Source of the DNA: Escherichia coli | Lineage (GTDB): Bacteria; Pseudomonadota; Gammaproteobacteria; Enterobacterales; Enterobacteriaceae | Assembly: GCF_016026235.1 (NCBI RefSeq) | Contig: NZ_CP065613.1 | Length of the DNA: 64,000 nucleotides | Direction: 5' to 3' (one strand) | In this document: positions 58,463 through 61,879 of the stretch, piece by piece | How positions within the stretch are numbered: position 1 is the stretch's first letter | How the letters are laid out: every line of letters starts with the position of its first letter | Notes under the pieces: generated by a model | Told to the model about the DNA's origin: nothing | The model's input: only the letters and a program-made list of their open reading frames with translations | The model's database searches: none | Translations under genes and position numbers: made by a program

Positions 58463-61400
58463 ATTACTAATCTCCGATCATGTTAACCGGCAAGACAATA
58501 CACAAATACAAACAATAATGAGAATAATTTATATTTGCCTTTTACAAAAAATAAAGATTATTGACAAAACTAAATATAAATAACAACTGCCTCGGCATGC
58601 CAGTTAACAGCTATCCGTATGGCGTGTTCGGTTTTGCGAATAAAAAATGGTTACTGTAGAAGCGGATTTCCACCACATGTCAACCATGAATGGTCAGTGG
58701 TGCGAGACGACTGGGATGATTTGGTCGATGACTTCTTCCGGTGAATACTGATAGAAACATTGAAATATTGTAAGAGAAAGCGTTCAAAAATTCTGCGGCA
58801 CGTGAAAAATTCTACAGCGTCATCACCTTATTCAGTCGACCTTCAAAATAAACGTTTAATAGAGACAATCACCATTTGGATTGTCCGCTGAGGAGGCGAA
58901 CGTTTTCCTAGACAGCTTTATCATGTCAGCCCACATTGTTGGCGCTGACAATACTAAGGACAAACGATGGGGAAGTAGCTTTTTAGCGTTATTTTCGGGA
59001 GTAAAAAACATGGTATCTTTCCGTATGTCAGTTGTATCTTGCTGGTATTCGTAGTCGTGATAAGGCATACAACGATATTTATCTTCACGTTAGTGAAGAA
59101 TAAGTTGTTTTGTGATCTATGTTAATCTGGGATTACAATCCGGGCTTGATACATCGCATCACGACTTTTATTCTCTTCAGAATATGTTACTCCCCGTTTT
59201 ACAGGCTCAGGATTTGAATTACAAATTATACTTTTAAGTGAACAATAACCAGGGGTATTTCTTATTTCCTGAAACCAGGCTTGGCCCATTTCGGGATGAG
59301 TTTGAAAAAACTCTTGACGCATACGATAGTGATGAAATAAACGAAACAAATTACGTCAACAAACTCAGGCGTCTTGCCTGACATGCTCCTGACATCATTG
59401 ATATTCACGCTCATCTGGCATATGCATTTGCGCTCTTTATGCTGCAATTCTGGCGAATGTTCATTTACAGCGTCATCAGGATGCCGTTATACTCATTGAT
59501 AAAATACTAACATATAACCCTGAGAATAATCAGGGGACACGCTGGTTACTGGGGACGGAATTGTTACGTGCCGGCAAGCATGACAGGGCTCTGTACGTAT
59601 TGACAGGACATGTCAATGAATTTCCCCCCTACTGGTACGAGCTTGCTCTTTTACATTTTATGAATGAGGCATATATTAATGCTGCAACGGCATTTCGATA
59701 TGGATTTTTAACAAGCATATATTGTTGAAATGCTTTGTTAGAATCTTTATCCATTCCCTGGGGCTGTATAGTATGATTTTTCAGGTATTTCTGAATACAG
59801 CCAAATATTATTGCAAATATTCTCTAAATTATTAATTAAATATCCATAAGCATTATTGCCTGGGAACTGGACATATAATTACTCTTCTGTGCTAAAGGAA
59901 CGTTCTGAAATGTTTAAGTATGCAGAGATGTTGATGGCGGAAGAAGATGATAAAGTATGTGAACTTATTTTTAAACAACAAGATAATTTGATTTTAAAAA
60001 TAAATGATAGATTTCCCAGAATAATTATAAAGAAATACCGAACATTACAAGGTAAAGTCGTATGGCTATGGATATTGCCATTTGTTATTAAATGGTTAAT
60101 TTTGTGTGCTTTAGGCGTAAACAGCTGGCGATGAAAAAGTAAATACCCTGATTATTATTTGTTAAGAGATGAGATACCTGTGCGTCTGGTGTCTATTATA
60201 TTCCCAACATTATTGGCGCTATTCTTGCTGGCGTAGGCATCGCCATACTATGAATATTGTGTTTGTCGTGATTCAATTTTTATTTATAACCTCTACCCGG
60301 AGCAAATTCAGGTAGGTCATGCATAAAAATATCTTTCTATACTACGAAACTACGAAAATTATTTTTGTGAAAGTATTGACAACGCTAACTATTTTTAATT
60401 ATATATTCATGGTGCTCTAGGCATCACATTTTCTCCATGGGGTATTCCCTCCGCCGGCACTATGTGTTGCTGGCGTTTTTTTATCAATTCTTACTTTTTA
60501 ATCCCACTGTCCTTTCCACCAGAAACATACCTCGTTTCTACTGTATTTTGAGAATATAGTTCCCAGAATACCAATTATATATAATACGTTGTAATATATG
60601 TATTCCAATTAAAGCCGTTATTATAATAATTATCATATATGGTTCTTTTCATGTTGATTTCGTCAGAAACAGAAAATGCTGATGATGAATTGTGAATAAT
60701 CAAACTGACCTCTAATTATCCTGTATGGAGTAGTGCTTATTTTCGACTCAATTTCTACTGATTAGATTATGGTTATCAGTACAGTGGGTTATGAAAAACG
60801 GACTGGATCTGCCAGCAGTGCTTCTATTATTATTCAAAAAGAACTTCAGCCGGACAATGCTATAATCCAGGGAAAGGCTATAAGCTCTGTTGGACGGAAT
60901 GTGGAAATCAGCACTGGTAAAAAGGGGAACTGACATTAACACAAGAAGGATTCCTGCAAGCAACTGCTTATCTGTCCGGAACGCAGAATTAAAGCATGAC
61001 CACACAGGAGCCAGAATACTGTGGTCGTACGCATTCAGTATTGTGACAACTAATAGAAATAAAAATCTGGCCGGTGCGAATATTAAACGATGCGATACCG
61101 TATAGTGTAAGTCAAAAGTAACGGGGTATTTAAACCATCTTTTCATATTTATTTAACATAATGCAGATTCTGATGTATTAGTTCAGTTGTTCGCCAGAAT
61201 CAGCGCTCGACCACGATGCGATTTTGCAGTGTGCCGAAGAAGTTCTCCATCACTGCGTTATTCAGACCGTTTCCTTTGTGTGGCATATTTTGTGCTACTC
61301 CATGGGGCTTTAACTTTGCCTATAGCCTGCCATTCGATATTGCCAACCCTGATCCGTATGTAGTTACGGGGCATCCTCCGGGCCGGGCACCGACAATGCA

Positions 61401-61879
61401 TCGTGCACCATCGTATTAACAATCTCCATTACCGGACTTTATGACAGGCGCAGGAGAAAATCTCCCGGTTAAACTGAACGGAGAACCAGCGACAGGTACC
61501 TCTTTTTACCCTGTAGCAAGTACTCTATAACATACTCCCCCATTTTTCGTTGGCCTTCATTGCAGCAAAGTTCCGGCTCAGGATATTGGGCGCAGATCAT
61601 CCTCTCAGGAATTTCAGGATCTGCCAGACGGTGCTGAGACGACGCTTACTTGTAAGGTTAGTTTTCAGACGGACAATGAAATGAGGATATGCGATAAATT
61701 TCAGTCAAAGATCCATAAAACAGAAATAATGTTATTCAGTGGTGAACAGTCCATTCCGGAGACGGAATATCTTGTTAAGGCTGTATATTATACTGGCTGT
61801 AAACAATACTGGCTGTAAACAACATGGCCACCAAGGACCATGTTGTTTACAGCATACCCTTGTTGCAAAAGCATCCCCG

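Follow-up and report, generated by a model that had tools for sequence, protein, structure and literature searches.

The stretch between iha and iutA (positions 58463–61879) in a 64,000-nucleotide segment of the Escherichia coli contig NZ_CP065613.1 (the whole segment is called the window below) is, with a probability of about 0.9, a mosaic joint in a pathogenicity island inserted at pheV, composed mostly of dead DNA plus two parts that look functional, the iha promoter and an intact gene for the small RNA (sRNA) Esr41. The first-pass annotation, made from the letters alone, had guessed that this DNA might hold an unrecognized small RNA; there is indeed one, an intact Esr41 gene matched over its full length above the Rfam gathering score, and although it was unknown to that annotation it is known to the field.

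The Esr41 gene lies on the plus strand at 60411–60484. According to the Rfam search, it matches family RF02676 with 108.6 bits (gathering score 102, E-value 2.4e-21) over model positions 1–74 of 74, and the match was reproduced when the whole window was searched. The RNA folds into three hairpins with a single-stranded CACAUUUUCUCCAU stretch (minimum free energy −24.9 kcal/mol, z = −3.1), and this fold is the family consensus. The terminator scan reports a hairpin of 8 pairs (6 of them G-C) at 60452–60475, followed by U7. In the ~70-nt Esr41 of the literature, a GC-rich hairpin with its poly-U tail doubles as intrinsic terminator and Hfq-binding module (PMC8565820, PMC9387321); judging by its letters, the RNA encoded here has the same size and would have the same GC-rich terminal hairpin and long poly-U tail. 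The predicted promoter (60355–60405, plus strand) contains a near-consensus UP element at 60355–60372, which is the sole match to the UP-element pattern in the window, a perfect −35 hexamer TTGACA at 60376–60381, and an AT-rich −10 element (TTATAT/TATATA) at 60399–60405, with a spacer of 17–18. Among 7 loci of different lineages, the promoter varies at one site (60386) and the RNA at two, namely 60412 (A/G in stem 1, with the pair kept) and 60483 (at the end of the U-tail), and the putative single-stranded pairing region reads the same as in the experimentally characterized allele.

The closest known relative is Esr41 (also named EcOnc14) of enterohemorrhagic E. coli (EHEC) O157:H7, which is located beside iha in SpLE1/OI-43/OI-48 (PMC5286369). 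The two share the 74-nt sequence except for a single A2G change (the pair is kept as G-U), the three hairpins, the terminator and an identical promoter. The gene studied here also has the same position and orientation as in O157, 1.95 kb away from the start codon of iha on the opposite strand, so that the two genes diverge within an island segment adjoining iha. The flanking DNA is ~97% identical to that of O157: positions 58000–61599 are colinear with O157 strain ATCC 43890 at 96.8% identity, and the iha–Esr41 region overall is 96.8–97.7% identical. On every testable criterion, Esr41 of this window is a member of the known family as far as its sequence tells, i.e. the small RNA of this stretch is an already known one.

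The islands themselves differ. The host here is a pheV island that carries a serine protease autotransporter of Enterobacteriaceae (SPATE) gene and the aerobactin operon and that has no ter or ure genes; it is near-identical to the islands of one uropathogenic (UPEC) and one enteroaggregative (EAEC) E. coli strain, unlike the O157 islands. Two copies of the 8-bp unit ACTACGAA are found upstream of Esr41 instead of one, and at 61599 the backbone shared with O157 breaks off and is joined to iutA. Core chromosome gives way to the island at the tRNA-Phe gene (pheV, 35325–35400), with a GC content of 0.514 before it and 0.476 after it, and the island that follows runs colinear with its pheV counterpart in UPEC-245U. 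Homology to the iha islands of O157 and TB06053 runs from iha to 61599 and then stops, and homology to the sat–iutA module of the ST131-type island AR_0013 runs from 61181 into iutA. The segment common to the iha module and the sat–iutA module is a remnant of an IS3-family insertion sequence (IS), which is therefore the likely recombination joint; its allele here is of the AR_0013/55989 type and not of the O157 type. Recombination inside this shared remnant would have placed the iha backbone against the 3' end of the aerobactin operon (iuc–iutA). The junction segment (61530–61680) is complete in 775 genomes. The features of the stretch and its neighborhood are as follows.

44737–48594, plus strand: SPATE autotransporter gene, 1285 aa ('sigA' in RefSeq for the near-identical UPEC-245U)
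56372–58462, minus strand: iha (RefSeq annotation of near-identical DNA in UPEC-245U/190328)
58463–58620, minus strand: iha 5' regulatory region (Fur consensus scan and promoter scan)
58776–58869, no strand assigned: scrap of an IS256-family transposase gene
58888–58944, no strand assigned: scrap of an IS3-family transposase gene
59142–60134, plus strand: decayed shiA-like tetratricopeptide-repeat gene (protein matches of a reconstructed part; tblastn, blastn, tblastx)
59916–60134, plus strand: '72-aa hypothetical protein' of RefSeq, in the same frame as the C-terminal shiA-like homology
60087–60188, no strand assigned: hypervariable patch (alignments of 15 alleles)
60341–60356, plus strand: 8-bp tandem repeat, 2 perfect copies (Tandem Repeats Finder, TRF)
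60355–60405, plus strand: predicted Esr41 promoter (read from sequence)
60411–60484, plus strand: Esr41 small RNA gene, intact (Rfam RF02676)
60769–61105, plus strand: plug fragment of a TonB-dependent receptor, an Iha/IrgA-like paralogue (BLASTP)
61181–61599, minus strand: remnant of an IS3-family transposase, C-terminal part of OrfB (minus-strand translation with IS3 OrfB motifs)
61600–61879, minus strand: iutA 3' flank (TRF and terminator scan)
61880 to beyond 63979, minus strand: iutA (RefSeq annotation of near-identical DNA in UPEC-245U/190328)

The limits of the stretch are exact: its first base directly follows the iha start codon and its last directly precedes the iutA stop codon. RefSeq agrees with the names iha and iutA that the first-pass annotation had given to the flanking genes. 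Its description as AT-rich and gene-poor held up as well: GC content is 0.386 as compared to 0.503 in the remaining window, and no open reading frame (ORF) exceeds 132 aa. When GC was computed for all 3417-bp stretches of the window, as had been proposed, the minimum (0.385, starting at 58451) fell on essentially this stretch, and local minima of 0.30–0.33 are found within 59600–60800. RefSeq labels on the same DNA in other genomes are just 'hypothetical protein' or pseudogene. No intact protein-coding gene was recovered by translated searches, Pfam or the RefSeq annotation of near-identical DNA, including the translated homology search that had been named as able to overturn the first description. 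A hidden intact gene was also rejected: for the full set of larger ORFs and the reconstructed frames, Pfam gave weak tetratricopeptide-repeat (TPR) matches only. Besides Esr41, the only Rfam match in the stretch is a chance one to mir-30 (21 bits), on the iutA terminator hairpin.

In EHEC O157, Esr41 is Hfq-dependent (PMC8565820, PMC9387321). Its targets chuA, cirA and bfr are repressed through direct pairing, as confirmed by compensatory mutations; expression of Esr41 in DH5-alpha confers resistance to colicins Ia and Ib, and deletion of esr41 brings a fitness advantage under iron limitation (PMC5286369). Esr41 also raises motility via fliA/fliC and lowers locus of enterocyte effacement (LEE) expression, by routes that are unknown (PMC8565820, PMC9387321). 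Since Esr41 works when moved into K-12 (PMC5286369, PMC9387321), no EHEC-specific partner is needed, and since the gene here differs from that of O157 by one pair-preserving substitution and has an identical promoter, we infer that it has the same mechanism, with its expression and targets in this strain taken over from O157. With its UP element and perfect −35, a strong sigma-70 promoter would drive independent transcription of Esr41, and the transcript would end at its own intrinsic terminator, with the hairpin and U-tail serving as the Hfq-binding module. By analogy with O157, the single-stranded C/U-rich stretch would repress translation of chuA, cirA and bfr by pairing with their ribosome-binding regions. 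This would bias iron uptake away from heme and catecholate receptors and confer colicin Ia/Ib resistance, and motility may be affected as well.

Another RNA with overlapping targets (bfr, chuA and cirA) is RyhB, a core-genome, Fur-repressed and iron-sparing RNA that is likewise an Hfq-dependent, trans-acting sRNA (PMC5286369). The two RNAs have no sequence relation, and they act on cirA in opposite directions, with Esr41 repressing and RyhB activating it (PMC5286369). Fur control of Esr41 was rejected, because no site matching the Fur consensus at 13 or more of 19 positions is found at 60340–60410 and the nearest Fur-like AT-rich matches lie downstream. Direct regulation of iha by Esr41 is unsupported by duplex prediction too: the predicted duplex with the iha translation-initiation region is weaker than that for any of the 42 remaining ORF starts of the window, and by eye there is just a 5-bp match between the Shine–Dalgarno region and CUCC.

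To see how widely Esr41 is carried, we counted complete E. coli genomes (n = 5426) containing the region at 80% coverage or more. [quoted passage not shown] The O157-like form with one repeat unit makes up about nine tenths of the carriers (630 of 695 records fall in the 95–99% identity band). The idea of an EHEC-restricted Esr41 is thus contradicted by the UPEC, EAEC, ETEC, avian and LEE-negative STEC carriers; in the parts of the literature available to us it is labeled 'EHEC-specific' or 'pathotype-specific' (e.g. PMC5286369), and one preprint labels it prophage-encoded. A phage or plasmid origin was rejected, as Esr41 has no match among 50,697 phage records and only three 'plasmid' records carry it. 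From this distribution, Esr41 reads as a passenger of the iha module wherever the upstream backbone is kept. Among the available portions of publications that mention both Esr41 and uropathogenic E. coli, we found no report of Esr41 in uropathogenic strains. Among GTDB species representatives, a single contig carries Esr41, an E. coli-like fragment binned as Collinsella. This contig (JAIJJM010000258.1, comparison locus L011, 4.3 kb, from a 'Collinsella sp.' metagenome-assembled genome) is 95.4% identical at 2219–4164 to window positions 59642–61599, and its placement is almost certainly a binning error.

None of the RefSeq matches listed annotates Esr41 (the features under the match read 'none'), so that an experimentally characterized sRNA that alters iron uptake and colicin sensitivity stands unlabeled in ~13% of complete E. 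coli genomes; the value of the finding is mainly one of annotation. In this island of the UPEC/EAEC type, Esr41 is flanked by genes for two siderophore receptors, iha and the aerobactin system's iutA, and what it does to ChuA, CirA and Bfr, to resistance against colicins Ia and Ib and to motility merits consideration in extraintestinal and enteroaggregative strains. The wider distribution of Esr41, together with an upstream repeat of 1–20 copies and a hypervariable patch, may be new, all of them minor points; the repeat and the patch offer cheap leads for studying Esr41 regulation and open no long-standing question.

The repeat consists here of 2 perfect copies of ACTACGAA, which occupy −70 to −55 relative to the 5' end of Esr41 and lie just outside the UP element. 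When a 221-bp query spanning it was matched to the complete E. coli genomes, the matched lengths were 213, 221, 229, 245, 253, 261, 269, 277, 293, 301, 309, 317, 333, 341 and 365 bp, which differ by exact multiples of 8 and so correspond to 1–20 copies. Read directly, the copy number is 16 in UPEC-245U, 1 in O157 and 2 here (counterparts in the comparison loci lie at 7886–8012 of L001 and ~6002–6009 of L003), and isolates from the same study disagree (17, 13 and 12 copies in one set; 14, 9 and 9 in another). As the repeat is outside the UP element, copy number would leave the core promoter unaffected and shift the upstream DNA instead. Promoter-proximal short-repeat (slipped-strand) loci are known to tune or phase-vary expression in Neisseria and Haemophilus, and the repeat resembles these in its short unit, its perfect tandem copies, its varying number among close isolates and its place just upstream of a promoter; it differs in that the spacer between −35 and −10 is free of it, the repeat lying upstream of the UP element. 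It is a rather speculative proposal, with the odds well against it, that the repeat acts as a slipped-strand 'rheostat' that shifts upstream DNA or a regulator site and thereby tunes Esr41 output between lineages or within populations. If it did, the iron-receptor hierarchy (Iha versus CirA and ChuA), colicin Ia/Ib sensitivity and motility would shift with it. The ACTACGAA sequence was not found in our literature search.

Most of the remaining DNA is debris. The suggestion of decayed genes in the first-pass annotation was borne out by a shiA-like TPR pseudogene, a piece of the plug of a TonB-dependent receptor, and what remains of IS3 and IS256 elements. In-frame stops (e.g. at 59382) and at least 2 frameshifts break the shiA-like gene, which also has an internal deletion of 132 bp at ~59430. 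The reconstructed N-terminal part (162 aa) shares 48–53% identity (E-values down to 1e-58) with E. coli proteins named 'tetratricopeptide repeat protein' and with 'ShiA-like protein [Shigella flexneri]', and tblastn, blastn and tblastx against the homologues extend the homology, spread over three frames, to ~60089. Pfam finds only weak TPR/ANAPC3 matches in the reconstruction, and an intact ORF of ~240–270 aa or more with TPR repeats is absent, making this copy a pseudogene. At the protein level, identity to ShiA of the S. flexneri island SHI-2 and the shiA-like TPR proteins of E. coli is 60–68% over the N-terminal 72 aa and ~70% over the TPR region; the present copy differs in being a pseudogene, with its stops, frameshifts and deletion. 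SHI-2 is an aerobactin-carrying island, as is the island in which the shiA-like gene is found here. Elsewhere, shiA-like TPR proteins adjoin island integrases (e.g. a homologue lies beside an integrase in comparison locus L010), and in the LAA island a ShiA homologue adjoins iha (PMC6920203).

Toward iutA, the plug fragment shares 44% identity over 70 aa with Iha residues 28–97 (E-value 2e-10). It is frameshifted here and a 111-aa ORF in O157, is called 'hypothetical protein, frameshifted' by RefSeq, has no Pfam match, and comprises only part of the plug of a receptor that would otherwise have a signal peptide, a plug and a 22-strand beta-barrel; neither signal peptide nor barrel is present. 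Fur-box-like sites (14/19) lie before this fragment (60616–60640) and at its start (60765–60783), and they are consistent with its being what is left of an iron-regulated receptor gene. The IS3 remnant is called 'DDE-type integrase/transposase, frameshifted, incomplete' by RefSeq; instead of a complete element with OrfA/OrfB and terminal inverted repeats, there is only a frameshifted OrfB C-terminus of ~420 bp. Beyond it, the iutA 3' flank is identical to a segment in the aerobactin module of AR_0013. A 50-bp repeat at 61599–61649 is probably an IS end; single genomes have it at as many as 13 places, and it is also found on plasmids. At 61779–61822, TRF reports 2.8 copies of a 16-bp tandem repeat (GGCTGTAAACAATACT), which overlaps a hairpin downstream of iutA; the terminator scan predicts the hairpin with an 18-bp stem at 61853–61812 to be the terminator of the iuc–iutA operon.

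At the other end of the stretch, the iha 5' segment is almost invariant among 6 aligned loci. A Fur-box-like site (AATAATGAGAATAATTTAT, 58514–58532) lies 52–70 bp upstream of the iha ATG and, as the best site there, matches the consensus at 13 of 19 positions; 32 sites in the window match as well as this, and the promoter scan finds a hexamer pair resembling a promoter at 58586–58557. A paper by Rashid et al. from 2006 (cited in PMC6920203) reportedly deals with Fur regulation of iha, going by its title. RefSeq places a 60-aa 'hypothetical protein' (WP_000922604.1) at 58401–58583, antisense to the iha start codon and promoter and without family support, which is probably a spurious call. Farther upstream, 58776–58869 and 58888–58944 are each ~84% identical to transposase genes in distant blastn matches against E. 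coli genomes, and are therefore read as IS scraps.

The hypervariable patch begins where the shiA-like homology ends and extends beyond the stop codon of the remnant ORF. Among 15 alleles, 41 of its 102 positions vary, forming ~5 haplotype groups without indels, while its flanks have ~1 variable site per 20 nt, i.e. about tenfold less. Even near-identical strains differ inside it, at 60116, 60126 and 60132. A structured RNA as the cause is not supported: RNAalifold gives a G-U-rich hairpin on the plus strand and nothing on the minus strand, and covariation lends the hairpin no support, with pair counts of 92.1% against 91.6% in the shuffled control and 219 of 500 shuffles reaching or exceeding the observed value. 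Diversification of the kind brought about by diversity-generating retroelements was also rejected, as 29 two-state transition sites stand against 12 others and no reverse transcriptase is nearby. Gene conversion from paralogous shiA-like copies, or old divergence kept in the mosaic, may account for the patch, and it may be a second variable determinant on the same transcript or strand as Esr41.

Other readings of this DNA can be weighed against these data. The first-pass annotation had also considered regulatory DNA bound by H-NS for the flanking receptor genes, and the stretch might in this sense be chiefly H-NS- and Fur-bound regulatory or silencing DNA for iha and iutA. GC content is 27–32% in several segments, and very low GC is typical of H-NS targets; there is also the Fur-like site with its conserved promoter region upstream of iha, and the promoter scan returns 22 promoter-like sites where 12.2 are expected. 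Against this reading, no more than the first ~160 bp lies upstream of iha, where a plausible iha promoter is found and where the early suggestion can stand; it fails on the iutA side, which is a 3' flank with a terminator. As the last gene of the iuc operon, iutA has its 3' end and terminator facing the stretch, so nothing in the stretch can be the iutA promoter, and the greater part of the DNA can be recognized as pseudogenes and IS debris. We consider this reading unlikely as an account of the whole; it is compatible with a mosaic joint and does not replace it. That the entire stretch including Esr41 is inert, decaying DNA in a non-O157 background, with the sRNA gene a hitch-hiking relic, seems very unlikely to us. 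All of the surrounding DNA is pseudogenized, Esr41 has been lost in over half of iha-positive genomes (e.g. by the IS3 insertion in ST131-type islands), and RefSeq annotates nothing at its site. However, the promoter, the RNA and the terminator are intact and hardly vary from lineage to lineage, while the neighbors gain stops, frameshifts and up to 40% variable sites. The gene is also one pair-preserving substitution away from the experimentally active O157 allele, and that allele is functional in K-12, so no EHEC-specific partner has to be present (PMC5286369, PMC9387321).

A third alternative concerns only the 72-aa ORF, which could be a functional small membrane protein with a hydrophobic C-terminus and a C-terminal end made hypervariable by diversifying selection. 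RefSeq calls the ORF intact in several lineages (five WP accessions), a plausible AGGA is found 10 nt upstream of the ATG, and codons 1–57 vary little while the final 16 vary much. Yet the ORF is homologous, in frame, to the C-terminal part of shiA-like proteins and the part upstream of it is stop-ridden, so that it is best and most simply read as the tail of the pseudogene. Moreover, the hypervariability runs ~55 nt past the stop codon, the ORF has no Pfam family, and its allele of the type seen in the window is flagged as incomplete by RefSeq itself. We hold a functional protein here to be highly improbable.

Some observations weigh against the mosaic joint with a working Esr41 gene. Esr41 could be silent in this strain, its −10 hexamer is only a moderate match, and the window does not include its validated targets (chuA, cirA and bfr). 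Upstream of iha, the Fur-like site fits the consensus at 13 of 19 positions only, and the recombination history would be that suggested by break points in a handful of genomes. Finally, 1507 genomes have iha as compared to 694 with Esr41, i.e. about half of iha-positive genomes are without Esr41, which makes Esr41 dispensable for iha carriage. The difference is explained in part by ST131-type islands, in which an IS3 insertion at ~58952 has taken away all of the DNA past it, Esr41 included.

Outside the stretch, the best Fur-box match of the window (16/19; GACAGTGATTATCATTATA, 44628–44646) lies ~91 bp upstream of the SPATE autotransporter gene, and hints at iron regulation of this toxin gene. 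In the core part of the window, Rfam reports a match to the REP-derived naRNA4 at 21335–21405.

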